A stretch of 64,000 nt of DNA from a virus. Made by a program: the position numbers and the translations under genes. Of this stretch, positions 544 through 16,202 are shown one piece after another. Each line of letters opens with the position of its first letter. The stretch's first letter is position 1. The notes under the pieces are model-generated. The model did not search any database and was not told the DNA's origin. It saw only the letters and a program-made list of their open reading frames with translations. The stretch covers positions 29,709 to 93,708 of the IMG/VR virus record IMGVR_UViG_3300033144_002959. One strand, 5' to 3'.

Positions 544-1194
544 TTATTTAATGCCACTAGGGCGATCCTCCGGGGGCAAATTATGCAGCTGGTGTTTACG
601 GTCAGCCAACGTGTACATTGCGCTGCAAATGCCTGCACAAGCAGCCTCACGACGAGCTTGTATATTTTCAATCTGTGCAATGAAATCTGGCTCTAGGATC
701 AAACTCGCGCACCGCGTCTTCGCGAGAAAGTAATCGGGATTCTCGTCACCGTCAACATCACCGGGGAAGTCGATCACACCGGGCCTATCCATCTTGTACC
801 AACCTTCTTTGACCCCACGATTCTTTACCTGCATCGCACTGAAGATTTCTTTGTTGACAAACTTACCAGCCTCTCTGCCTGCACTAGAGCCGGGGTAAAA
901 CAAAGTTTCGCAACCGCTAATATTTGGGTCTCCCGCTGCATTGAAGTGCACTTCTATTGCGATATCAACGCCCTTGATCGCGTTAATCTGTTTGACCTTC
1001 TCTCGCAGCGATCCGGTATCAACTCGCTTCGGAATAAAATGGATATTAGGACTGCCCTGATCCCACGAACCAAGCAGCTCAATAATTTTGTCCTGCCACA
1101 ATACCGCCTCATCGTACTCGTTAGCTTCTTTGTACGACGCGCCCTTGGCGTCAGGGTTATGGCCTGCCGAAACCGCTACTGTAAAAGCTGTCAT
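544..1194 (-). CDS. Endolysin, N-acetylmuramoyl-L-alanine amidase (Amidase_3)
   Basis: Zn/catalytic motifs VAVSAGH, NEYD, IEVHFNA, GCETLF, LILEPDFI. Confidence 0.9.
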   Translation of the reverse strand: MTAFTVAVSAGHNPDAKGASYKEANEYDEAVLWQDKIIELLGSWDQGSPNIHFIPKRVDTGSLREKVKQINAIKGVDIAIEVHFNAAGDPNISGCETLFYPGSSAGREAGKFVNKEIFSAMQVKNRGVKEGWYKMDRPGVIDFPGDVDGDENPDYFLAKTRCASLILEPDFIAQIENIQARREAACAGICSAMYTLADRKHQLHNLPPEDRPSGIK

Positions 1195-3511: not shown

Positions 3512-6133
3512 TTAGACTGCAATTGTGTCTGCTGTACGTACGACCGTAATCGATGCGCCGCCGTCTCCAACAAGCTGATTGATATCGAATGGCAGAATGA
3601 CTTTGCCCTGCCGCACGTTACAAACTGTTGTGAAATCAGACGCCAATGTTTTGACAAAAGTATTCGACGTTGGATCACCAACTGCTTCAACATCCAGAAT
3701 CAAATCGTGAATGTTGTCAGCCGCCGCGTACGTCTGAATCAGCTTATTGATTTCATACGTGTTGCCAACATCGAAGTCATCCGGCGTACCGTAAAGCGGA
3801 CTGATATCCAGAGTTATATCGTCAAATACATTCGTGACTTCCCAAACGTGTGTCGTTTTGCCACCGAAAGTATTGCGAACCAGATCACCACGAACAACCG
3901 GCGTACCGCCTGTCGAGAACAACTGTCCTGTATCGATCAACTGAGTTGTGCTCGCACTTGTCACCGTTCCGGTATCGGAAGTTGGCACCACCAAATCAAA
4001 CTCTTCATCGGTGAAGTCCGTTGCAGCATATCGGTACCTGTGCTCTTCCAGCAAAGTCGTTTCAATGATTCTAATCCACGCTACAGGCGGAACCTCAACA
4101 TCCAACGTGCCCGCTACTCTTACGCGAACATCGCCTTGGTTGTTATAGCCGACCGCAGGCGCAGCCAAACCGCCATGCTGATCCTTATCAACAACGCCCA
4201 ACACCCCGGTATCCCGAGCTGCATACACCCGATCAAGTGCCAGCGTATTGCCAACCGAGTATGTAACCGTATTCGGCGGCGTCCGCAGTACACCCAGATC
4301 ATCCGTCAGAATGTAATTCTGCGTGTCATTGTCGTGGAACCCAGTGTAGTTAATGCAACGAGCACCGAACAACACCGTGCCTGTAAACGTGCCAAACGGC
4401 GCACCCTTGGGCGACGTGAACGTTTGAATGCCACCGCCCGCACCGGCAAAGAACAACGTTGCGCCAGCGCCATTTTCAACAATAACATCCGCCGCACCTT
4501 CATCGACAAGAATCGAGTTGTCAACCACAGCATCCAGTGAAGTCTGTTGATCCGTCAGTACGACATGCGCAGGTGTACGAGTATCGTGATTTGACATCGC
4601 TCGCGAGCCATAATTAGGCTGAGCCGCGATGATAATGTCCTCGCCTTCATCCACGTTGAACGTCGCATCCGAATCAACTTCGTACACAGCATCTGCACCA
4701 CGATAAACTTCACCATCGATATTGACACCAACACCAAACAGATCGGTCGAATTGCCACCTCGTCGAGTAACGTATTTCAGTCGCTCATAAGTCTTAGCTG
4801 CGGTTACACCGTTAGCACCCGGACCCTGCGAATCAATCTGGGCCGAATATGGCTCAACACCACCGACACCATCGTGATCAACTTCAATGTCGCCCAGCAC
4901 AATCGTTACCGATCCGCCTTCGCCAACTCCAGCATCAGTAGGCCCGCCCGTGTTAGACGCTGGCGCACCCGCTGTACCTGAAGCATCGCCATCCGCGCCT
5001 GTCGCGAAATCATATTCGGTAACTGCCGCCGCTGACAGATCGGTCAAATCACCGACGATGTAATACTCAAGCGTTGGCGTCGCACCTGATCCGCCGACTG
5101 TGATAATGCCTCGCGCTGTCGCCGCAGCCCACGATGCACCAACGTAAATACCATTACCCACTTCCCACGTATTCGAAGCGCCTGACAATGTCGTGCGTCG
5201 ATACCCAGTCGTGTTGTTAATATCTGGAGCTGAAGCGAGCGGGAGCGCTGAGAATCCACCTGCGATTACATTCAATCGGAAGTTGTCATATAGGGATGTG
5301 TATCTGCGTGAGAATACCTCCACGTCCCCACTCGCAATCGTTACGCCAGCGTCAATCACCTTAACGAGAATCGAAATAATTCCCAGAGAGACTGCTGCGT
5401 CAGTAGCCCACCACTGGAAATTGCCTTCCCAGTCTGTCAGCTTGATTCGATCCTGCACCATGTAAACTTCGGTGCCATTCGGGACACTACCAATCGCCTG
5501 AATCGCGGACCACTGGTTATTGCCGTCAAGGCCAATTTCGGTACTTACCAAATCAACCGTGCCCGCGCCGCCGTCAGTCGTGCACTCCAACGTGCCGGTA
5601 TCCAAATTAAAAATATCCCCCGTTACCGGCGTCGAATCATTCGGTCGAATCCAAACAATCGTGTCACCGTTCTGGGCAATTTCGAAATCCAGCAACGTAC
5701 CTTGATCGGTACCGTCTGTGATCTGCCTGCCAATATCGCCTGTTATAAAATTCGTACCAAGCCCCTGCGAGTACACCTTACGGAGTACACCATGACCATC
5801 GATATCAGTTTCGGGAGTCGAGAGTGACCAATCAGCTGTGATCGCACCCTCTTTGAGATATTCGGTTGAACTCTTCGGCATGAAAAAGTGATTGATCAGC
5901 GTAAATGAATTCGGCGTTACCGGAATCATCGGATTCGTAAAGCCCATCGCGATAAAGTCATCGGTCACTTCAGCGATTGCTGAGTAAAGCGTACGAGTAG
6001 AAATGACATTCTCTGTCGCTGGTGTCGCAGTCCTTCTCACCGTGCGCAGCCCTGTGTTTAATGTGGCTGGCACCGTTATTTCATCCTGAAATAAGATTTC
6101 CCAGTCGCCGCCTAAAATCGTGATAGTGGTCAT
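3512..6133 (-). CDS. Large putative virion structural protein
   Basis: 873 aa, T/G/D/V-rich beta-type composition; RBS TTGGAG; shares a TGxVT...IDT...VxRG module with 1409-2788. Confidence 0.65.
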   Translation of the reverse strand: MTTITILGGDWEILFQDEITVPATLNTGLRTVRRTATPATENVISTRTLYSAIAEVTDDFIAMGFTNPMIPVTPNSFTLINHFFMPKSSTEYLKEGAITADWSLSTPETDIDGHGVLRKVYSQGLGTNFITGDIGRQITDGTDQGTLLDFEIAQNGDTIVWIRPNDSTPVTGDIFNLDTGTLECTTDGGAGTVDLVSTEIGLDGNNQWSAIQAIGSVPNGTEVYMVQDRIKLTDWEGNFQWWATDAAVSLGIISILVKVIDAGVTIASGDVEVFSRRYTSLYDNFRLNVIAGGFSALPLASAPDINNTTGYRRTTLSGASNTWEVGNGIYVGASWAAATARGIITVGGSGATPTLEYYIVGDLTDLSAAAVTEYDFATGADGDASGTAGAPASNTGGPTDAGVGEGGSVTIVLGDIEVDHDGVGGVEPYSAQIDSQGPGANGVTAAKTYERLKYVTRRGGNSTDLFGVGVNIDGEVYRGADAVYEVDSDATFNVDEGEDIIIAAQPNYGSRAMSNHDTRTPAHVVLTDQQTSLDAVVDNSILVDEGAADVIVENGAGATLFFAGAGGGIQTFTSPKGAPFGTFTGTVLFGARCINYTGFHDNDTQNYILTDDLGVLRTPPNTVTYSVGNTLALDRVYAARDTGVLGVVDKDQHGGLAAPAVGYNNQGDVRVRVAGTLDVEVPPVAWIRIIETTLLEEHRYRYAATDFTDEEFDLVVPTSDTGTVTSASTTQLIDTGQLFSTGGTPVVRGDLVRNTFGGKTTHVWEVTNVFDDITLDISPLYGTPDDFDVGNTYEINKLIQTYAAADNIHDLILDVEAVGDPTSNTFVKTLASDFTTVCNVRQGKVILPFDINQLVGDGGASITVVRTADTIAV

Positions 6134-6209
6134 TCAAATCTCCAATTCAAAATACCACCCAAGCGGCGGCAAGGCTATTCTACGTGGCAGTGTAAAACCG
6201 CCACCCTGT

Positions 6210-8408
6210 TTAGTCATTAGCTGGATCGAATAATGCCAGCGAGTTGATATTCCAAGGCACCGTCGTTGTCAACCCCGCTGGCAGTACCTCCCTCTTCAAG
6301 TCCTGTCGAAAATACTTCGTCACGTCCAGCGTCGCAAAGCGGCCAGCAGCACCAAGGGTCGATGTACCGGCAACAGATACTCGTGCTCGTACGTAATAAA
6401 ACGGACCTTGGCTGTTGATTGTCGTGACTATCCATCCCGCCTCCGCGTCAAACTCATATATAAATTCACCAACTGATCCAAAATTCGGATTCGGGTCTGC
6501 ATCTGTAAACGTCAGCGCAACCCACGCACCATTCCAAAACTCCCAGACAATCGTCGGCTCGCCCGCCGTATGCGCCACCGACACTTCCAACTTGAACCGG
6601 ATCGTGCCATTAGGGCCATTTATAAATTGTTCACTATGGCCCAAGTAGTACGCATCATTGACGTCCTGCGGGTTATCCGGGGTCAGAGTCATGTCATCGT
6701 CGGTCGAGCTGTTTGCTTCCATTGTCTCGTCGGTTAGAACCGCGCCATCATCAGCAACCGCTGCATTCGGCAAACCGTTCTGAGCCGCCCGCACGATAAT
6801 ATCGACACCCGCACCAAACGCACCTTCGTAGTTGAACGTGGTCAGAGCAGCCACGCCATTTGAGTCAGCAAGAATTTCCGCGATCACATCCCCGACAGTC
6901 AGCGACCCAACCGTTTCGTTGGCTATGAACTTGACCGCCGCGCCTTCGGTCATTCCGTTCGCTTCGATGGTCTGCGCATTGGTGATCGTCAGATTCGACG
7001 GGCTAGACAGCGACGTAGTATCCGTCGTAATCGTGCCCGCCCCGTTTTGTAAATTGATTGTAATAAGAGCTGTGCTCGTAACCGGATCAACATCAATAAA
7101 AGCATCGGCAGTATCATCAGCGCCATAGCCACTGTTCTGCCAATTGTCGAAGTTGTACACGAACGGCCCTGCTCCAGTAGGACGCAACCTCACGCCGTAG
7201 CCTGAACCATCACTGTTGAACGTCAGATCGGTCAGGTCACTCCTGTTGTGCTGGGTTTCGTCAAGCAGCAGCGCCCCGGTGGCATCGTTCGATCCATTGA
7301 ACGTAACCTGATCCATGTTTACGAGGCCGGGGTCAACCTGATCGCAATTAACCAGAATCGTAGCAACCCAAAACTTATCCACGTCGTTTGCTACGTTGCA
7401 ATTGATTGCGCCAATATCAACCAACGTACAGCTATTCATCTGCACGAAATCCATATCGGCATCAGACATATCAAACTGTGCTCGCGTACTGACCCCCACG
7501 ATAACAACGCGAGTTATAACCCAAGAATTTATGCCGGTCGAATTACCTACCAACCTAAATGGGAAGTGCGTGTCGGCCACAATATGACCGCCCTGATTGT
7601 CTCCAATCCAAAACCACTGAGTATCTGTCGAAGTGAAATAGCTATCTGACGTCCCTGCCGGTGGATTCCCCCATTGAGTCGGCGCGAAAAATCCATACTC
7701 AGTACCCTTCGGGTTGTTAACCATTCCCAGACCAGCGGTAATATCATCAGCAGCCACATCGACCATCGTTTCAGGGGTGCCGACTGTGCCACCCTCAATC
7801 GTCAACGCATAACCAGTAACAGACGAGACACTGTTCAGGATGTAATAGATGCCATCGCACCAAGCATTTTTCGCCGTCGATACAGCTTTCACCAACCCAA
7901 ACGAGCCATACCCGATTTGCAGAACAGCGGTGTGATCCAGTCCCGCTTCTGTGCCGTTATAAACGAAGTGATCAGTGCCCGCTGACCCCGGCGCTGCCAC
8001 AATCACAGACACATCGAGCTTCATAACGCCAAATCGAAACTCGTAGGGGAACCCTGCGATATCAGCACCATTAACGGCATACCCTACGATGTCACCGCCA
8101 GCACCATCGGCCCCATCGCCAAACGCGATCAGCCCACCGACGTTCCCAAAAAGCTCTCCGAGGTTGTACTTGATAATCATGTAGATAGTCATGTCCGACA
8201 TATCTACGTTGAACGTACTTCCGGCCTGATCTTGGTCGAACAATAAAACCTCTTGTGCGTCAGCTACCTGAAACTCAATAGAGTTCGAGCCTTGAACAAC
8301 GGTACCAACAATGTTGCTCGTTCCTGTAGGCGCAGCGGACGTATCGCCACTGACATCAGCAGCAGCTTCGCAGTCCTGAAGTCGAGTTCTGTTGTCAACC
8401 AGACTCAT
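6210..8408 (-). CDS. Large putative virion structural protein
   Basis: 732 aa, acidic beta-rich; C-terminal IVWEFWNGAW...YYVRARV jelly-roll-like module. Confidence 0.65.
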   Translation of the reverse strand: MSLVDNRTRLQDCEAAADVSGDTSAAPTGTSNIVGTVVQGSNSIEFQVADAQEVLLFDQDQAGSTFNVDMSDMTIYMIIKYNLGELFGNVGGLIAFGDGADGAGGDIVGYAVNGADIAGFPYEFRFGVMKLDVSVIVAAPGSAGTDHFVYNGTEAGLDHTAVLQIGYGSFGLVKAVSTAKNAWCDGIYYILNSVSSVTGYALTIEGGTVGTPETMVDVAADDITAGLGMVNNPKGTEYGFFAPTQWGNPPAGTSDSYFTSTDTQWFWIGDNQGGHIVADTHFPFRLVGNSTGINSWVITRVVIVGVSTRAQFDMSDADMDFVQMNSCTLVDIGAINCNVANDVDKFWVATILVNCDQVDPGLVNMDQVTFNGSNDATGALLLDETQHNRSDLTDLTFNSDGSGYGVRLRPTGAGPFVYNFDNWQNSGYGADDTADAFIDVDPVTSTALITINLQNGAGTITTDTTSLSSPSNLTITNAQTIEANGMTEGAAVKFIANETVGSLTVGDVIAEILADSNGVAALTTFNYEGAFGAGVDIIVRAAQNGLPNAAVADDGAVLTDETMEANSSTDDDMTLTPDNPQDVNDAYYLGHSEQFINGPNGTIRFKLEVSVAHTAGEPTIVWEFWNGAWVALTFTDADPNPNFGSVGEFIYEFDAEAGWIVTTINSQGPFYYVRARVSVAGTSTLGAAGRFATLDVTKYFRQDLKREVLPAGLTTTVPWNINSLALFDPAND

Positions 8409-8806
8409 TACTGACCATGCCTAATCGCCAGCGCAATCGCTGCCGCTTCTGACGGATACAAATGCGTTTTCGCAACCGACTTGATTTTGTAAGTCTCTCC
8501 AGCTTCAGCATGTTCCATGTTGGAGTAGTCGGTGCTGCCAGTAATCAAAACGATGTCGCCCTGCGGAATATCGGCCATGCCTTTGGTACCGGTTGGTTCA
8601 AGGAATACTCGCGCACCATCGCCAGCAGCCGCCAGAGCTTCTTCCATCGTAGCGTGTTGCTCAAGCTGGAAGGCATCCAAACCGGGTATGAAAGGCACGA
8701 ACATAATCCGTTGAACCTCAAACGCACCCTTGATCTGTCGCCACAACTGGTACTCCGCCACTGACGGTAGCTGTGTCTGTTCCCATCTTGCGATTATCGT
8801 GATCAA
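8408..8806 (-). CDS. Minimal SPOUT-fold (TrmL/SpoU-like) methyltransferase-like protein
   Basis: VFLEPTG, DIVLITGS and KI...LYPSEAAAIAL align by eye with TrmL-type knot motifs (LMFGPE; SMNLSNAV); canonical residues diverged. Confidence 0.6.
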   Translation of the reverse strand: MITIIARWEQTQLPSVAEYQLWRQIKGAFEVQRIMFVPFIPGLDAFQLEQHATMEEALAAAGDGARVFLEPTGTKGMADIPQGDIVLITGSTDYSNMEHAEAGETYKIKSVAKTHLYPSEAAAIALAIRHGQ

Positions 8807-9354
8807 CTGGTCACCTTCGGTATCAAATGCTTATCCGGGCACCGACATTTTGCTTCCTTTACCGGGTACGGATAGGCCCCAGCAAGCATCGTCACCCGGT
8901 TTGTGTCCCCGTGAATCGCCTTGATACCGTGGATTGCGTGATCCTTCATGACCGCCGCCCAACCAACCTTCGGTTGAAAACAATCAATCTCATTCATGTC
9001 AGGATCGAGTATCGCCAACCCACCGCCAGACTCCGGCACTTGCAAATACAGGATCATCGTACGGCCATCCCACTGGTGCGTATGTGGCATTTTCAATTGC
9101 CACTCGGGATCATGCTTTGGCGGAGTGTGTTCGCATTTCTCCAGAGCTTGAATATCGGAAACCCAGTACAACCAGTGATCGACCTCATAGCCCATTTCGT
9201 CTTCGATAATTGACTTTGCGTAATCCTTAAAAACTTGCGGTACGTTATTCGTCTCACAGGTCTTATGCGCCCCAGACACGTTTGCTAGAACGTGCTCCCG
9301 CAGCATGTCCACCGGGCAATCCTTCCATTCAAAAACTTCGAATACGTTTTCCAT
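8803..9354 (-). CDS. 2OG-Fe(II) oxygenase-like protein (HxH type)
   Basis: PHTHQWD...ILYLQVPESGG...QPKVG...HGI...NRVT: HxH...H...R double-stranded beta-helix signature. Confidence 0.8.
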   Translation of the reverse strand: MENVFEVFEWKDCPVDMLREHVLANVSGAHKTCETNNVPQVFKDYAKSIIEDEMGYEVDHWLYWVSDIQALEKCEHTPPKHDPEWQLKMPHTHQWDGRTMILYLQVPESGGGLAILDPDMNEIDCFQPKVGWAAVMKDHAIHGIKAIHGDTNRVTMLAGAYPYPVKEAKCRCPDKHLIPKVTS

Positions 9355-9890
9355 TACCTATACCCCGTTGCAATAATCGTCATACGATCTGTTTCACCGA
9401 ACACTTCCTCAACGCCGTGCTCGCACCAACCATCCAGTACAACTGTCGTTCCCAACTCTGGCGTAACTCGACCTTTCTCGGTAACTGCATCGTCCTCAAA
9501 GACCACCGTATCGCCACCAGAATCAGGCAGCTGTACGTAATGCACGCACGTCAAACCATCCCACTGGTGATTGTGTGGAAAGCCTTTGGCCCAGCCCACT
9601 CGATTACTCACGTGGCCGGGGTGCACCATGCCAGTCCAGTACCGCCATTTCGCTTCGTCGTATTTGTAATCGACTGCATCCAAACAATCCCGGTAATGTT
9701 GCTTCAACTCTTCCGGTAATTTATTTCTATCAACGTCTCTCGCCGACGTGTTGTTGTCCACCGCATTGTCACGAACTACTTCCCGCAACAACTCAAGCGG
9801 AGACTCAGAGAAATCAAATACTTCCAGTACCGGAAAACAATCATCCGGTCTCCTGTGCCCAGTACCCATCGCAACTATTTCGTTCACCAT
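9354..9890 (-). CDS. 2OG-Fe(II) oxygenase-like protein (HxH type), paralogue of 8803-9354
   Basis: PHNHQWD...VHYVQLPDSGG...TPELG...HGV...DRMT. ORF track starts at 10043; ATG at 9890 chosen to avoid overlap with upstream gene. Confidence 0.8.
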   Translation of the reverse strand: MVNEIVAMGTGHRRPDDCFPVLEVFDFSESPLELLREVVRDNAVDNNTSARDVDRNKLPEELKQHYRDCLDAVDYKYDEAKWRYWTGMVHPGHVSNRVGWAKGFPHNHQWDGLTCVHYVQLPDSGGDTVVFEDDAVTEKGRVTPELGTTVVLDGWCEHGVEEVFGETDRMTIIATGYR

Positions 9891-9900
9891 CCAAGCTCTC

Positions 9901-10341
9901 TCACGTGTACGTAAAGCCCAAGCGGTCATCCCAGACTTTGTCAAAATCCGAAGTACCTCCGGCCCAGCGAAATTCAAAATCATCTTGACCGTCACCACCA
10001 GTAATGACATCGATCTTTTGAATGCGCCATGCGTTCGTGGCATCTAATGTCCCCGGCTGAGCCTGACCCTTGTAGATCACTGCTTCACCAACAAAATCAA
10101 CTCTCGTTGCAAATGGCACATCACTCTCCGCTGCGGGGCCTTGAACACCAACGTCGGATATAATAACGCTTCCGTCCTCGGCCTCGATAACCGTAGTCGT
10201 TTGTTCAACAGAAATTACTTCGGAATCATCCGGCTGGACAACTACCGTGGTCTCATCAACCTGCGTAATAACATCAGCAGCATCAACGTCATTGACGACA
10301 ACACTGCCATCGTCGTTGACAATTACTTGAAACTGAGCCAT
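9901..10341 (-). CDS. Putative virion protein
   Basis: 146 aa; V/D/T-rich N-terminal repeats, GVQGP, then IYKGQAQPG...AWRIQK...VWDDR module typical of phage late genes. Confidence 0.6.
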   Translation of the reverse strand: MAQFQVIVNDDGSVVVNDVDAADVITQVDETTVVVQPDDSEVISVEQTTTVIEAEDGSVIISDVGVQGPAAESDVPFATRVDFVGEAVIYKGQAQPGTLDATNAWRIQKIDVITGGDGQDDFEFRWAGGTSDFDKVWDDRLGFTYT

Positions 10342-10344
10342 GAC

Positions 10345-10719
10345 CTATGGCCTCGTGACGTTAGCGACTGACTTAACTTTTCCCTCAAGCAATCGAATCA
10401 CGCAGGTAACGTCGGAAATCAAAGTCATTTCCAAATCGTAAACGCCAGCAGCCCACGTAATGTCATCGGTTACATCCGCCCCAACCTCCAGTAGAATCCC
10501 ACCGTCAACACCGGATAACGTAATCGATCCTTCGTCAACGGCGGGAGCGGTGCTACGGAGCGCCAGAAGTATTGCGGTCGCGGCTGCACTTTCCCGAATG
10601 TGCATTTCTGCCGTGTAGTCACTGGTATCGATTGGATTGCCATCCGAATCATTCCACGTCAGCTGCTTGGAGAACTTGGCCCCGACTTCAAATGTTAAAG
10701 CTAACTTTCCAGCTGACAT
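10345..10719 (-). CDS. BppU/LtfC-like tail-fibre attachment domain protein
   Basis: GAKFSKQLTW...PIDTSDYTAEMHIR...GVYDLEM...RLLEGKV pattern. Confidence 0.6.
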   Translation of the reverse strand: MSAGKLALTFEVGAKFSKQLTWNDSDGNPIDTSDYTAEMHIRESAAATAILLALRSTAPAVDEGSITLSGVDGGILLEVGADVTDDITWAAGVYDLEMTLISDVTCVIRLLEGKVKSVANVTRP

Positions 10720-10730
10720 GAGCTACCCCT

Positions 10731-10746
10731 GTCCAATTGATTGGAC
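10731..10746. promoter_or_regulatory. 16-bp palindromic site, copy 1
   Basis: Exact GTCCAATTGATTGGAC in a 28-bp intergenic gap. Confidence 0.8.
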
Positions 10747-10747
10747 G

Positions 10748-11158
10748 CTAGTCCAGATAGTTTACTGCCAGTGTGTAAGTGATCGAATCCGTGTCCCCGT
10801 GCGTCAACACCACCCTCCACAAATAAGGCAGACCATCTTTCGCGACAAGATTCGCAACCGCTGTCAGGTCAGGGTGAACTTTGTAAATATTGAACACCGC
10901 TGTCGTCACCGCTACACCGGTCAAAATGTTGTACCACGTATCCGAGCCGTAATCGTACCCGTCGATGGTCGCTACAACAGACGGAGTTGACGTGATAGAC
11001 GTAGCATCCAACAGGATATGAGCACCACGAAACCGCTGATGATTCGTCAGGAACGGGTACTCCGGTGCCGGAGTGGCATTAGGTACATCGGTTACTGGCG
11101 TCTCTGTTCGTGCTGCGCTTGTTAGCAGAACAATTGATTGCTGTACTGGTCCGCTCAT
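10748..11158 (-). CDS. Small beta-sandwich virion protein
   Basis: 136 aa; homologous to C-terminus of 11209-12105. Confidence 0.6.
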   Translation of the reverse strand: MSGPVQQSIVLLTSAARTETPVTDVPNATPAPEYPFLTNHQRFRGAHILLDATSITSTPSVVATIDGYDYGSDTWYNILTGVAVTTAVFNIYKVHPDLTAVANLVAKDGLPYLWRVVLTHGDTDSITYTLAVNYLD

Positions 11159-11208
11159 TTCAATCCTCCGTCATTGGTAGCCATTAAACAACTACCACGT
11201 TAATTCCA

Positions 11209-12105
11209 CTAGAGCTTATATTCCACTGAATAAGTTACAAGAGTTGCATCCCCGTGCTCTACTCTCACCCGCCACATATATGGCAGGACATCATTAGCCG
11301 ACAAATTGGCCACGTCATTGAGATACGATCCCACTTTCAACCGCTGCTTAGTGTTTTTCGCCGTAATATTTGCGCCAGCCAGAATAAGATACCAAGTACC
11401 TGACCCAAAATCGTAGCCCTCTATAAAACAAGTCAGATCAAATGGTCCGCCAGCCTGCTCGGGTAAGTCAATAATTACGTCTGTCGGAGGCCCACCGCCC
11501 CCTCCTTTGCCTTTGCCGCCAGAGCCAGCACCGCCCTGCTTCGTCGCTGGCTGTGTAACTACCGCCGTCTGCGTCTCATCATATTCCGCCTCGGGAATAG
11601 GCACCCCTCCACCGGGATTCTTTGGATTCTTAATCTTAGTGCCTTGATCGTAAGGCGGCAGTGGTGGTGGTGGAGCAGGCTCACCCTCAAACGTTGCTAC
11701 CCATTCGTTGCCCGCTTCAGACCCCCAATAACTGTCCTTACTTGGAAACCAGTAATATGTCCCCGCCGTTGAACTGCCCTGATCCAAATCACCACCAGCG
11801 CCAACATCAGCAAAATCAAACACGACATCAGCCTCGCCACTCCGAGACAAAGTCAAAGTCAGAATTGAATCAAAATCCCACTCCGTAGGAGATTCATCAC
11901 CCGGATCAAACCACATTTCCGTGCCGCCACTGGAAGTGCGATCACTGATTTCCATCCACTCGATATTGCCCGGTGGTGTATCATCTTGTAGGTAAGCCGG
12001 ATCAGGGACAATGGACCCAGTAGGCAGGCTAATTTTTGTGTACCCGTAAGTCGTACCGGAGAAAAACGCTACCGTAATCGTGTATGCCTGTGTCTCAATG
12101 GCCAT
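11209..12105 (-). CDS. Two-domain virion protein with Pro/Gly-rich linker
   Basis: 298 aa; PAPPPPLPP and GGAGSGGKGKGGGGGPP linker; C-terminal domain duplicates 10748-11158. Confidence 0.6.
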   Translation of the reverse strand: MAIETQAYTITVAFFSGTTYGYTKISLPTGSIVPDPAYLQDDTPPGNIEWMEISDRTSSGGTEMWFDPGDESPTEWDFDSILTLTLSRSGEADVVFDFADVGAGGDLDQGSSTAGTYYWFPSKDSYWGSEAGNEWVATFEGEPAPPPPLPPYDQGTKIKNPKNPGGGVPIPEAEYDETQTAVVTQPATKQGGAGSGGKGKGGGGGPPTDVIIDLPEQAGGPFDLTCFIEGYDFGSGTWYLILAGANITAKNTKQRLKVGSYLNDVANLSANDVLPYMWRVRVEHGDATLVTYSVEYKL

Positions 12106-12114
12106 GCCTGCCTC

Positions 12115-13047
12115 CTAAGTCGTAACGATCAATTGGCCGCTAACATCAGTTGAAACCGGCGGAACACGTTGATGCAGTACCTGAACCCAACACGTTGTTA
12201 CCTGAACATTAGGATTTGTAGCCCGCCCTAGAACTTCAGTGACAATATTAGTCAATTGTGTGTCCGGGTTCGCCTCGGTACCAGCGATCTCTGCCCATAA
12301 TCGAGTCATACGCACGGTCGTATTCGTGCTTGCATTGATCAGTGCCGTATCACCATTGGTACCGACCCCGAAATAGTCAATATCAAGAACACCCCCGTGA
12401 GCGGTCCCCGAGCCTACCCCGGTCCATCCTGCCGCCGTGATTCGACTACCACTCGTATCCTCGAAATCAATCTCCCACCACGGAGGTTCGTTGAGGCCGT
12501 TAATACCGTCAATCCAATGCTTTGCTTGCACCGTAACCGTCGCGCCCGTACCGTTGACTCTGAATCGCATGTACTGCCAAACATCAGAAACCGCATCATT
12601 CCAGTACGGGAGCCTCATGGTGTACATATAGCGGGGCGCTTGCTGATTACCAGAAACATATCCATCGAGAAGTTCTGTTTGAACACCAGCGGCCCACCGA
12701 TTGATTTCCAACTGGCCGAACTGATCGACCATTAAATCGTAGCCTGCTTCGTTTCCACCAGAGCCACTGGCCCGAAGGAATAGATTTGGGCGAGTATGTT
12801 GGTCGGCTGAATTTCTGTAACGACAAATGATTTCAGAGTTCGCCCGGTTGGCGTCGCCGTCTATGTCATCCCACGAGGCGAGCTGAAGACCTGTCCCTGA
12901 CGCTGCCGCTTGAAACACCCGATCATCTTCAGCATCTGTCGGTGCTTCTATAGTCCACTCAGACATCGCCGCGAACCTTGCCGTGAAATCGGTTGCAAAG
13001 ATTCCCGTAGTACCTTCGTCGCTAAAGTCTTTTGCGTAAGTCGTCAT
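12115..13047 (-). CDS. Lectin/ConA-like fold tail protein
   Basis: 310 aa; LRASGSGGNEAGY, WQYMRFRV, AAGWTGVG, DIDYFGVGT shared with 22940-23839. Confidence 0.6.
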   Translation of the reverse strand: MTTYAKDFSDEGTTGIFATDFTARFAAMSEWTIEAPTDAEDDRVFQAAASGTGLQLASWDDIDGDANRANSEIICRYRNSADQHTRPNLFLRASGSGGNEAGYDLMVDQFGQLEINRWAAGVQTELLDGYVSGNQQAPRYMYTMRLPYWNDAVSDVWQYMRFRVNGTGATVTVQAKHWIDGINGLNEPPWWEIDFEDTSGSRITAAGWTGVGSGTAHGGVLDIDYFGVGTNGDTALINASTNTTVRMTRLWAEIAGTEANPDTQLTNIVTEVLGRATNPNVQVTTCWVQVLHQRVPPVSTDVSGQLIVTT

Positions 13048-14126
13048 GTCTCTAACGTAATCCCAAATTCTGCTGCGTCAATAGTAGTGTCAGACCAGTT
13101 CGCTGGCCCATTAGGATTCTGCTCAAATATCCCCGACACCATACGATACCTGTCTTGGTTAAAATGCGTTACATCCCCGTTAGACTCAGAAGTGCTGCTG
13201 CGACACAAAGCACTAATATCACGTCGCCCCGCATCCTCATTCCTGCCCAACATCTTAACCTGCACCCCATAAACTGTCGTGAAATTAGAAACAAGATTTG
13301 AGAACGTGTACAAATCGTCATCAAGTGCCGTGGCACTGCTAACGTACGAGGTTTCTTCATCCTGCTCCGCCTCATCTACCATTTCATAGTTGGTCAACCC
13401 AGAGAGTTGCGTGAAATCATTGCGGTTACCATCGCCATCAGGGTCCAACACTTCAATATGAATATCACCGAGAAAATCATTCCACGGAGAACCGCCCGTG
13501 GTGTCGAGGACATACAAATCAGCAAACTGAAACTCCACCGCTGCTTCAGGATAAAGTTCCAAATTAGTAGCCCACGCATTTACCGTAAACTGAGTATCCA
13601 CCGTGCTACCTGACATGATGTTTACGCCATCCAATCTAAGTTCATACGACCCGGCACTAGCGTCTATCGTCGTCTTGTATTCGATGTAGTGCCAACGACG
13701 ATCCAGATGAATGTCAGCCCGTACGCGATCAATCTCGTCATTAGCAGAATCCCCAGCATACAAAACAAATTCCTGATTGCCATTCAGATAAACACTCTGC
13801 TGCCATTCAGCGTTTCCGCTAGTTATACCATCCACGTCTATGAGTCCGAAAATCATAACAGGCAAAAACGGAATGAGGTTTGGGGTCTCATCTATTCGAA
13901 ACCTAAAGCCTAAAACTATCGATGTCATCCGGTCAGGTAATTGATATCCGGCATAAATATTCGTTGATGCCTCAGATAAAAAGCGCCCAGTCAACGGGTG
14001 CACATTATTAAGATCAGGCCCTGCGGTACCGCTCGACCACCGCAACCACATCTGCGTATTGAGCCGCCCATTAGCTTCAGACGATGCGTCAAATGTAGAC
14101 ATGCTATCCAGTAAAATTAGTGCCAT
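13044..14126 (-). CDS. LamG/ConA-like tail protein, paralogue 1
   Basis: WHYIEYK...YELRLDG, then DFLGD.H.E.L.PDGDG...NYEMVDE...AEFGITLET. Confidence 0.65.
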   Translation of the reverse strand: MALILLDSMSTFDASSEANGRLNTQMWLRWSSGTAGPDLNNVHPLTGRFLSEASTNIYAGYQLPDRMTSIVLGFRFRIDETPNLIPFLPVMIFGLIDVDGITSGNAEWQQSVYLNGNQEFVLYAGDSANDEIDRVRADIHLDRRWHYIEYKTTIDASAGSYELRLDGVNIMSGSTVDTQFTVNAWATNLELYPEAAVEFQFADLYVLDTTGGSPWNDFLGDIHIEVLDPDGDGNRNDFTQLSGLTNYEMVDEAEQDEETSYVSSATALDDDLYTFSNLVSNFTTVYGVQVKMLGRNEDAGRRDISALCRSSTSESNGDVTHFNQDRYRMVSGIFEQNPNGPANWSDTTIDAAEFGITLET

Positions 14127-14129
14127 CAG

Positions 14130-15170
14130 TTAACTCTCAATTGTGAATCCAAATTCTGCGGCATTTATCGCCGCTTCGTCCCATGCTGCCCCGCCATTAG
14201 GATCAACTTCATAAACTCCCTTTCCATCCGTAGGCATCATCCAACTAATCGACGCAGACTGAGAAGTTCCCTCAACTTCCGTGACATTACTCCGCGATAA
14301 AGTGCGCGCCATACGCACCCCAGCATCCGTCGTACGAAACATGGGCTTGACGTTGGCACAATAAATCGTATCCATCGTTAAAGTCAGATTGTCAAACGTG
14401 TACAGCTCGTCATCGCCTACTACTGACGACCACACATACGTCGTGTCGTCATCAGGATTGTTCCCGTCATCCACGGCTTCATAATTATTCAACCCACCCC
14501 CGACTCGCGTGAAGTTATTACGATTACCGTCACCATCGGGGTACAAGGTTTCTATGTAGCACGGCCCAAGCAAGTCATTATTAGTCAGCCCTGTCCCATC
14601 CAAGACATAAGCAAATGCACATCGGTATCCAGACTGCGCGTCGTTAATTGAACGAACTAATCCACATGACGCAACCGACCCTGCCTGTGTGTCTTGGCCA
14701 GTCAAGCTAATCCACGACTCACCATTCACCTCAAGATCAATCGTGCCAGTTGAAGCATGGACTAAAACCTTTGCTTCGATAAAATAATACACCCCATGAA
14801 TAAAAGTCTGTGGGTACACCGACCGACCGACTTCCGTACCGGTACCATCCCGTGCCGACACTGAGCCATCTTGATTTAACCGAAATTCAACGTGCGGACT
14901 TTCACCCTCATTAAACGAAAGAAAAATCCCGTTCACTGAAAAAGGCAGAAGATCGAACATTCGCAAATGACCAAAAATCACAGTCGTAGATAACGGGATA
15001 TAAAAATTTATTGATGTATTAGCCCCAGCCAAATCAAGCGAATTATTACTGGGCAGCACTGGGTCCGAACTCGCGACAACAGTGTACGAAGTTGCATCTA
15101 TCATTTCACTACGCTGCAATTGTGCTTTCGTTGAGCAGTAATCAAATGCCGTTGTTCTTAAAACTGCCAT
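14130..15170 (-). CDS. LamG/ConA-like tail protein, paralogue 2
   Basis: YYFIEAK...DLEVNG, NNDLLGPCYIETLYPDGDG...NYEAVDD...AEFGFTIES. Confidence 0.65.
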   Translation of the reverse strand: MAVLRTTAFDYCSTKAQLQRSEMIDATSYTVVASSDPVLPSNNSLDLAGANTSINFYIPLSTTVIFGHLRMFDLLPFSVNGIFLSFNEGESPHVEFRLNQDGSVSARDGTGTEVGRSVYPQTFIHGVYYFIEAKVLVHASTGTIDLEVNGESWISLTGQDTQAGSVASCGLVRSINDAQSGYRCAFAYVLDGTGLTNNDLLGPCYIETLYPDGDGNRNNFTRVGGGLNNYEAVDDGNNPDDDTTYVWSSVVGDDELYTFDNLTLTMDTIYCANVKPMFRTTDAGVRMARTLSRSNVTEVEGTSQSASISWMMPTDGKGVYEVDPNGGAAWDEAAINAAEFGFTIES

Positions 15171-15173
15171 AGT

Positions 15174-16202
15174 TTAGCTCTCTATCGTTACACCAAACTG
15201 AGCGCTGAGCAGACCGCCCTCAATCCACGCTGCTACGGTATCGGGGTCTTGCTCCCATACCTCATAGTACGTCCGCCACGACGGCCCTAGATACCAGTTA
15301 ATCGATCCCTCGTACGTTACCCCACCACTGCGAACCGCTGAACGCATAACACGAGTACCAAGACCCCCAGCAATTCTGCACTTATACCCGACCTTCACCC
15401 CGTAAATCGTGTCAACAGTCTGAACCGGGGCAGGGTAATCGTACAAATCGGTGTGGCCCACCGTGGAAGACTCTACGTAACTGGTATCCTCATCCGGTGG
15501 TGTTTCATCAATCATTTCATAATTCGTAAGGCCAGACAAAGGCGAGAAGTCATTGGAGAATCCGTCACCGTCAGCAAACAATGTCTCGACCCAGCAATCT
15601 CCTAGATAATCATTATTCTCTGTCCCGTTACCGTCGAGCACATACAGATCATCCCACCAGTTATCAAGATGTGCCGAGCTGCCAACCAACTGAAAATAGT
15701 CTACGTTTACAGGGGACGCACCATTGTTTGTGTCTTGGCCCGTTGCCGACAACGACGTAGTCACTTCGTCAACCCTAACTTCATAAGTTCCAAGCGTATC
15801 GTGCACTCGAAACTTAAACTCAAAGTAATACCACTGGTCTTGAACCAGCCCTAATCCACTCGTAACAGCTAACTGCGTTGTGCCACGATCAACTGCCAGC
15901 TCTCCCCCAGTCACATAGCGAAAAACCAAATGCTCAGTAATACCCTGCAACACCCGGATAAGATCATGACTTGGATCATTTTGCCATCGATGAGCGAACC
16001 CAACTATGATTGTTTCACTGTTATCTAACTGGGGCAACGGATACCCCACATCCAAAGAACTTGACGTCAACTCCAACGCCTTCCCAGACCCAGATCGACC
16101 AGTCACATATACCGTAGTGGACGTGCTGCCACCAAGCATTTCGTTACGTATGTCATCGAAGCTATCGCCCTCATCGAACCCATCCATAAACAGCAAAGTC
16201 AT
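15174..16202 (-). CDS. LamG/ConA-like tail protein, paralogue 3
   Basis: WYYFEFK...YEVRVD, NNDYLGDCWVETLFADGDG...NYEMIDE...AQFGVTIES. Confidence 0.65.
   Translation of the reverse strand: MTLLFMDGFDEGDSFDDIRNEMLGGSTSTTVYVTGRSGSGKALELTSSSLDVGYPLPQLDNSETIIVGFAHRWQNDPSHDLIRVLQGITEHLVFRYVTGGELAVDRGTTQLAVTSGLGLVQDQWYYFEFKFRVHDTLGTYEVRVDEVTTSLSATGQDTNNGASPVNVDYFQLVGSSAHLDNWWDDLYVLDGNGTENNDYLGDCWVETLFADGDGFSNDFSPLSGLTNYEMIDETPPDEDTSYVESSTVGHTDLYDYPAPVQTVDTIYGVKVGYKCRIAGGLGTRVMRSAVRSGGVTYEGSINWYLGPSWRTYYEVWEQDPDTVAAWIEGGLLSAQFGVTIES

Follow-up and report, generated by a model that had tools for sequence, protein, structure and literature searches.

A SPOUT-fold protein that probably serves a neighbouring tail-fibre-like protein, beside two separate oxygenase genes, in an uncultivated phage

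Gene content of the locus

Three adjacent genes were analysed in IMG/VR record IMGVR_UViG_3300033144_002959, a complete 93.7-kb record of an uncultivated phage with direct terminal repeats; bases 29709–93708 of this record, 64,000 nucleotides in all, are referred to here as the window. Two of the genes encode the paralogous proteins OxyA and OxyB, predicted to have the fold of 2-oxoglutarate (2OG)-Fe(II) oxygenases of the prolyl 4-hydroxylase (P4H) type, and the third encodes a 132-amino-acid (aa) protein with a predicted SPOUT fold. They are followed by the gene of a 732-aa tail-fibre/spike-like protein (Table 1), called the fibre below. An earlier note, written from the sequence alone, had read the three genes as a single hydroxylate-then-methylate cassette. 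Our comparisons revealed that its fold assignments stand and that the single cassette does not: the three genes are real, they do not form one cassette, and the SPOUT-fold protein probably serves the neighbouring tail-fibre-like protein.

Table 1. Features of the locus, in coordinates of the window
Feature	Position	Strand	Remarks
OxyA, 178 aa	9354..9890	-	Predicted P4H-like 2OG-Fe(II)-oxygenase fold; ATG at 9890; H106-x-H108 ... H158 ... R169-x-T
OxyB, 183 aa	8803..9354	-	OxyA paralogue; PHTHQWDG, distal H, R-x-T; PF13640 18.7 bits
SPOUT (alpha/beta-knot, TrmL/YibK-like) fold protein, 132 aa	8408..8806	-	TTG start; acidic; without SpoU sequence motifs; fold predicted
N-terminal ~430 aa of the 732-aa tail-fibre/spike-like protein	7119..8408	-	Domain co-occurring with the SPOUT gene
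Invariant loop I-x-G-G-T-x-G-T-P-E-T-x-x-D-x-x-x-D-D	7743..7799	-	Residues 204-222 of the 732-aa protein
Variable C-terminal part of the 732-aa protein	6210..7118	-	Exchanged among relatives
146-aa gene upstream of OxyA	9901..10341	-	Left boundary of the putative oxygenase insertion
Terminator-like hairpin just 3' of the 732-aa gene	6153..6171	-	Consensus scan; weak evidence

All three open reading frames (ORFs) were confirmed on the minus strand, which carries every gene of the window. One-base overlaps (TAATG) join OxyA to OxyB and the SPOUT gene to the 732-aa gene, OxyB and the SPOUT gene overlap by four bases (TTGA), and ten bases separate the 146-aa gene from OxyA; the overlaps bear out the proposed translational coupling of the three genes to each other and to the 732-aa gene. 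The SPOUT protein is taken to be 132 aa long, as opposed to a database call of 98 aa, because about 60 homologues have the full length and strand 1 of the fold falls at residues 2–7. The HxH motifs lie at 9555–9578 in OxyA (PHNHQWDG) and at 9064–9087 in OxyB (PHTHQWDG), and the two proteins are 29% identical over 167 residues (E 1e-24), in agreement with their description as tandem paralogues.

In the direction of transcription, the window encodes a DNA polymerase, a portal, a MuF-like head protein, the major capsid protein, a 1330-aa tape measure, proteins of tail and tail-fibre PHROG families, and three phrog_2448 paralogues, and then small genes of 310, 298, 136, 124 (LtfC-like/phrog_1084) and 146 aa. 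OxyA, OxyB and the SPOUT gene come next; behind them lie genes for proteins of 732, 873, 222 and 459 aa and for an Amidase_3 endolysin. This order places the trio in the distal, fibre/spike part of the late operon. The trio was thus correctly described as lying among virion genes, with the tape measure, the tail-fibre PHROGs and the LtfC-like protein upstream and the endolysin downstream, and far from replication genes, the DNA polymerase being about 31 kb away. A consensus scan, which is weak evidence for such signals, found no minus-strand promoter-like site within 6000–12300, and the sole sensibly placed terminator-like hairpin was the one behind the 732-aa gene. GenBank phages gave no match to the DNA of the region, to the SPOUT protein, OxyA, the 732-aa or the 873-aa protein, or to two distant oxygenase relatives.

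Structure and sequence of the SPOUT-fold protein

AlphaFold2, run on the SPOUT protein with an alignment of 61 sequences, gave a model with a predicted local distance difference test (pLDDT) score of 95.1 and a predicted template modelling (pTM) score of 0.90. The top Foldseek matches of this model were SpoU-class methyltransferases only (template modelling score 0.75), and all its structural neighbours, among the matches listed, are RNA methyltransferases. The model has the alpha/beta fold of the SPOUT superfamily, with a C-terminal half predicted to form the deep trefoil knot; we infer the knot from the full-length, sequential superposition on knotted chains. Compared with TrmL, YibK and CspR (6qkv, 4jal, 8w9u), which are minimal tRNA Cm34/Um34 2'-O-methyltransferases of the SpoU-TrmH class, the predicted single-domain alpha/beta-knot has its strands and helices in the same order from one end of the chain to the other, and it shares with them the glycine that ends strand 4 and a C-terminal helix rich in small residues (AAAIALA). 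The TrmL-like SPOUT fold proposed earlier is therefore supported by the structural search. Language-model look-alikes with a Pfam family are likewise all of SPOUT type (SpoU_methylase, Trm56, DUF531, DUF2122, Methyltrn_RNA_4), a result taken as a lead only. Among the viral structures of BFVD, the model matched two giant-virus rRNA-methylase-like proteins and no phage protein.

By sequence, the 132-aa protein is not a recognisable SpoU enzyme. It had no Pfam match at E ≤ 1, and a PF00588 search of the whole phage genome gave no match, the same search matching 14 of 14 control genomes. A profile search of PDB sequences with the SPOUT family returned no SPOUT chain, hhalign of the family against E. 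coli TrmL gave a probability of 1.6%, and no relative of the family was found in GTDB species genomes. Unlike TrmL, to which it is 10–15% identical with no hidden Markov model (HMM) or profile signal, the phage protein is about 25 residues shorter. The SpoU motifs were compared in a by-eye alignment to E. coli TrmL, anchored on predicted strands and with residue roles taken from the literature (PMC3763551). In this alignment, G100-P-E-T-R-G of TrmL corresponds to G90-S-T-D-Y-S-N96 at the motif-2 position and S130-M-N132 to H115-L-Y117, so that the family reads G-(N/S)-T-x-x-x-N for GxExxG and H-L-Y for S-x-N. The GxE is thus missing, as had been noticed, and the glycine closing strand 4 is the sole survivor of the SpoU motifs. 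The near-invariant R23, located in helix 1, is a possible counterpart of the motif-1 arginine.

The absence of basic RNA-binding residues, also claimed earlier, extends to the whole family. TrmL requires R20, K42, R43, R45, R46, R59, R104 and R129 (PMC3763551), whereas the 61 members of the phage family have a median isoelectric point (pI) of 4.9 and a net charge of −6 (window protein pI 5.1, with five Lys and five Arg). In the phage protein, the alpha2-alpha3 basic tRNA-binding region of TrmL is shortened, the counterpart of the TrmL segment K42–R46 is short and uncharged, and the family has no basic RNA-binding surface of the SpoU/TrmH-TrmL class. The residues that are invariant in the family (FLEP, G90, N96, A121, A125 and L126) map to the threaded helix and to the three loops of the knot. 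As far as the model tells, the 132-aa protein is a complete TrmL-type knotted fold minus the SpoU motifs and the basic RNA-binding surface.

Linkage of the SPOUT gene to the fibre N-terminal domain

A search of IMG/VR with the SPOUT alignment identified 17 loci, all 17 of which have a homologue of the 732-aa protein that starts at or overlaps the SPOUT stop codon. The converse search with the 732-aa alignment found a SPOUT-family gene in 29 of 35 loci (HMM E 1e-13 to 1e-61), which ends −14 to 0 nt from the fibre start except at one locus (+28), where that start is ambiguous. When both searches are pooled, the SPOUT gene abuts or overlaps a homologue of the N-terminal domain (N-domain) of the 732-aa protein in 30 of 36 distinct contigs, in addition to the window and to metagenome locus L022 (L numbers are our designations), in which a divergent SPOUT copy shares an ATGA overlap with the fibre gene. 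The SPOUT gene is present in 46 of 52 related IMG/VR loci and in 47 of 55 of all loci scanned, and, unlike that of TrmL, it always stands in front of a tail-fibre/spike gene.

In three loci (L007, L015 and L019), the SPOUT and fibre genes are the sole window-related genes in about 16 kb, and L010 is the same apart from one unrelated match at its far edge. The fibre of such distant loci is conserved just over residues 1 to about 400–460. Its C-terminal part is replaced in L007, L008, L010, L015 and L019, and it is kept behind another N-terminus in a 930-aa protein of L021. Therefore, the inherited unit is the SPOUT gene plus the fibre N-domain, with the flanks and the fibre C-terminus being exchanged.

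In locus L021, synteny is intact, the two oxygenases are present and the fibre retains the C-terminal ~290 residues of the 732-aa protein; the fibre N-domain is swapped and there is no SPOUT gene. The 930-aa chimeric fibre (L021:7286-10078) joins an unrelated N-terminal part of ~640 aa to window-type last ~290 residues (67% identity), and is a clean case of N-domain swapping in a fibre. The SPOUT gene is also missing from a clade of six loci (L051–L053 and L055–L057), where an unrelated small protein of 68–91 aa occupies its position. The loop listed in Table 1 is invariant in the 732-aa family alignment; its T-P-E-T is kept in 29 of 29 SPOUT-linked loci and degenerate (TPLN or TPIT) in six of six SPOUT-less loci, and it is in exactly the sequences of this clade that G-T-P-E-T-x-x-D reads S-T-P-L-N or G-T-P-I-T.

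The small protein at the SPOUT position (L051:2784-2990, L052:2719-2994, L055:2733-2993) has a helix-turn-helix-like N-terminus, with a weak Phage_Cox match (E 0.03) for one of the three. Large proteins encoded upstream of the fibre gene in the same loci (L051:146-2770, L052:765-2678, L055:756-2678) and the fibres that follow them share the C-terminal motif (D/E)-R-N/V-Y/F-x-N-P, which may represent a common C-terminal module or a processing site.

Searches of the 732-aa protein against Pfam, PHROGs, PDB sequences and the Atlas were uninformative, and a literature search returned no paper tying SPOUT-fold proteins to phage tail modules. A complex prediction for residues 1–310 of the 732-aa protein with the SPOUT protein, supplied with both alignments, gave a score of 0.00, which is no answer and speaks neither for nor against binding.

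Fold, metal site and distribution of the oxygenases

An unbiased structural search with the OxyA model (pLDDT 93.4) returned classical 2OG dioxygenases as all of its best 50 matches, and the model is predicted to have their double-stranded beta-helix fold. Its matches include the PBCV-1 collagen prolyl hydroxylase, PHD2, P. putida P4H, Tpa1, and the uncharacterised 3bvc and 2rg4, which agrees with the earlier assignment to the 2OG-Fe(II)-oxygenase superfamily and puts prolyl hydroxylases nearest. In common with viral and bacterial P4Hs (PBCV-1 vCPH, 5c5t; P. putida P4H, 4iw3; PHD2) and the PF13759-type 2rg4 and 3bvc, the phage proteins have the double-stranded beta-helix core and N-terminal helices, the distal His and Arg-x-Thr in classical positions, and a GG(E/D)(L/T) turn past the first ligand pair.

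An oxygenase profile built from OxyA, OxyB and close homologues was run against 1.84 billion representatives and recovered 77 proteins at E ≤ 1e-3 (cluster representatives at 50% identity). Nearly all are 150–190 aa long, very small beside the P4Hs above. Exactly four residues are invariant in an alignment of 62 sequences, namely H106, H108, H158 and R169 (OxyA numbering). R169 lies 11 residues past H158 and is followed by x-T/S, as does the basic residue for the C5-carboxylate in 2OG enzymes. Unlike in those P4Hs, the carboxylate ligand of classical 2OG dioxygenases is replaced by His (H106-x-H108 ... H158) in 62 of 62 relatives, and an HMM alignment to PDB chain 9ei6, annotated as a P4H alpha-subunit domain protein, sets H-x-H over H-K-D. 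PF13640 is matched by 37 of the 62 relatives at E ≤ 0.01 (best 1.7e-7) and PF13759 by 16 of them, and the window's two copies score under the Pfam gathering threshold of PF13640 (23.2 bits for OxyA, cut-off 27; OxyB in Table 1). On these results, OxyA and OxyB are predicted to be P4H-like proteins that keep the 2OG-type Arg but have a three-His site. The metal ligands of cysteine dioxygenase (CDO) are His86, His88 and His140, and the HxH...H pattern fits them, which serves as a lead only; thiol dioxygenases are not among the structural neighbours listed for the OxyA model, a result that does not exclude kinship.

The oxygenase-family HMM matched none of the 52 IMG/VR loci and was found just in the metagenome contigs L020, L021 and L022, close relatives of the window, in which the oxygenases always lie directly behind a homologue of the 146-aa gene (OxyB homologues are 55% identical in L021 and 71% in L022). 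Searches of IMG/VR with an alignment, with a single protein and with a degenerate DNA pattern turned up no oxygenase relative, and 50,697 GenBank phage records held no BLAST-level relative of the HxH oxygenase family. Where the oxygenases are absent, the 146-aa homologue is close upstream of the SPOUT gene (abutting in L005 and L009, about 0.2 kb away in L003 and L012), and the pair therefore looks, on this comparison of gene order, like an insertion at the 146-aa/SPOUT junction. Multi-copy 2OG-Fe(II) oxygenase genes are scattered through marine phage genomes, and the phage oxygenases resemble those of marine cyanophages and other marine phages in being present as several diverged copies per genome, outside DNA-repair genes (PMC9146016; PMC11288001); the phage genome studied here holds two copies only.

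A recent transfer of the oxygenases was considered, but their G+C content overall (GC) and at third codon positions (GC3) did not differ from that of neighbouring genes, and composition thus gave no sign of it. In L022, an extra ORF of 128 aa (L022:561-947) lies between the OxyB homologue and the divergent SPOUT homologue, in which FLEP reads FIAP. The SPOUT homologue P0030 and the oxygenase member P0094 each have a recorded longest contig of 14,382 bp, with the same sources, and may be a further case of co-occurrence.

Interpretation of the locus

As a whole, the locus is best explained as two independent things, a SPOUT/fibre N-domain pair and separate oxygenases, a reading to which we give a probability of roughly 0.55. 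We infer that the SPOUT protein acts on or with the fibre N-domain, as a dedicated partner of this ~430-aa domain of the 732-aa protein. Their translational coupling would lead to near-equal amounts of the two proteins, and the two genes are inherited as a module while the flanks and the fibre C-terminus are swapped. The SPOUT protein might bind the N-domain as an assembly factor/chaperone or as an attachment adaptor, and would not methylate RNA; we favour such a stoichiometric role because of the coupling, the lost RNA-enzyme signature and the acidity. The oxygenases, whose insertion behind the 146-aa gene and ahead of the SPOUT gene would be confined to the closest relatives of the window, may be accessory metallo-oxygenases specific to this lineage, comparable to the 2OG oxygenases that marine phages carry in multiple copies, and may have no obligatory link to the SPOUT protein.

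SPOUT proteins are nearly synonymous with RNA methylation. If the proposed partnership is true, a family that keeps the knot without the RNA-enzyme signature, and is tied to a receptor-binding-type protein, would widen the known roles of the SPOUT fold and add an unannotated but recognisable component to tail-fibre modules, which would help to annotate and engineer the host-range modules of phages. With the HxH oxygenase family, nature provides a case on which the strictness of the 2-His-1-carboxylate rule among P4H-like enzymes can be tested. More generally, a run of three coupled genes that look like enzymes is not necessarily a pathway, and here it was comparative gene distribution that told them apart. 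The joint claim goes further: a widespread group of uncultivated marine or sediment phages would have recruited the SPOUT fold as an obligate partner of the tailspike/fibre N-domain, either as a non-catalytic assembly/adaptor subunit or as a methyltransferase of the G-T-P-E-T loop, beside a natural three-His P4H-fold protein that still works as a 2OG oxygenase. All of this together is rather unlikely.

Several points weigh against the preferred reading. The interaction between the SPOUT protein and the N-domain is its conjectural step, and a fused SPOUT-fibre protein was not found among longer proteins, which is weak evidence. Common descent accounts for part of the adjacency of the SPOUT gene and the N-domain, which lie in a syntenic structural module, and the two SPOUT losses, in L021 and in the clade of L051, L052 and L055, amount to no more than two independent events, which makes the correlation suggestive rather than statistical. 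Conservation in the SPOUT family peaks in the three knot loops (FLEP, G-x-T-x-x-x-N, Y...AAAIALA), which in TrmL build the S-adenosylmethionine (SAM) pocket (PMC3763551), and this pattern is as compatible with ligand binding or catalysis having been retained as with maintenance of the fold. For the oxygenases, the genomic context was read in the window and three close relatives only. Because an engineered three-His site (D414H) renders human P4H inactive (PMC2767507), OxyA and OxyB may not be 2OG hydroxylases at all.

It is accordingly possible, if doubtful, that OxyA and OxyB depend on something other than 2OG, being either another kind of three-His metallo-enzyme (for example a cupin- or thiol-dioxygenase-like oxygenase with some other co-substrate) or non-catalytic metal binders. 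The inactive D414H enzyme is in line with this, as are the invariant H-x-H...H without a conserved carboxylate ligand, the aspartate of the WDG motif (D111) varying across the 62 relatives, and the match of Cupin_2 to 3 of the 62. Moreover, HxH is a cupin-type signature that is rare among 2OG enzymes, JMJD8 being the named exception (PMC2938197). However, the invariant Arg, with a Thr or Ser after it, occupies the classical 2OG C5-carboxylate position, and both the structural neighbours and the frequent PF13640 matches argue for 2OG enzymes.

The SPOUT protein could also be an active SAM-dependent protein methyltransferase acting on the N-domain of the 732-aa protein, for example on the G-T-P-E-T loop or the conserved N-terminus, and thus the second such enzyme after yeast Sfm1. 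The same co-occurrence data agree with this possibility, loss of the TPET...D loop coincides exactly with absence of the SPOUT gene, and the invariant residues gather in the loops that form the TrmL SAM pocket; it is because the knot loops are so well conserved that we allow this role about one chance in five. A review records one SPOUT enzyme with a protein substrate (PMC9508554), and Sfm1 would be a precedent for putting a SPOUT fold to non-RNA use, although it is not among the structural neighbours listed for the phage model and catalysis by the phage protein is only putative. What makes such an enzyme unlikely is that coupling would give about as much of one protein as of the other, an unusual arrangement for a catalyst, that in the by-eye strand-anchored alignment the phage protein has other residues in place of the SpoU side chains for catalysis and SAM contact (N14, E102, S130 and N132), and that the correlation between loop and SPOUT gene comes from a single clade.

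It is improbable that the SPOUT protein methylates host RNA or phage tRNA and structured RNAs, as a divergent 2'-O- or base methyltransferase, and owes its place in front of the fibre gene to mere synteny. All its listed structural neighbours are RNA methyltransferases, and a minimal TrmL functions without an extension domain (PMC3763551), but the family is acidic, has lost the TrmL basic patch and every SpoU motif residue but one glycine, and gives no sequence-level signal to any SPOUT family; nor would co-loss with the fibre N-domain be expected of an RNA enzyme. Host tRNA, named as a target in the earlier note, is unlikely for the same net charge of −6 and the missing patch that TrmL needs (PMC3763551).

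The weakest explanation is the late hydroxylate-then-methylate cassette, with virion proteins (through a poly-Pro linker) or host tRNA as substrates: it could draw on the adjacency and coupling of the three genes in the window, on prolyl hydroxylases, the PBCV-1 viral enzyme included, as the nearest structures of the oxygenases, and on a proline-rich linker that does lie nearby (11653–11679, in the 298-aa protein), but it is already largely refuted by gene distribution and very improbable, since the trio is not conserved as a unit (oxygenases in none of the 52 related loci that have the SPOUT gene in 46), L021 has both oxygenases without the SPOUT gene, which co-varies with the 732-aa N-domain instead, L022 has its extra 128-aa ORF between OxyB and the SPOUT gene, and the linker is missing from the homologous proteins of the oxygenase-bearing L020 and L021.

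Other genes of the late operon

The structural operon ends with the Amidase_3 endolysin (window 544-1194; E 4e-12), which is four genes past the 732-aa gene. Directly behind the tail-fibre PHROG protein, tandem paralogues of 342, 346 and 360 aa (window 13044-16202) all belong to phrog_2448. The 136-aa protein (10748-11158) is paralogous to the C-terminal ~90 residues of the 298-aa protein (11209-11500), both having a domain of the type G-Y-D-F/Y-G-S-x-T-W-Y; this pair of paralogues is repeated in L020 and L021, where the homologue of the 298-aa protein is split or rebuilt.

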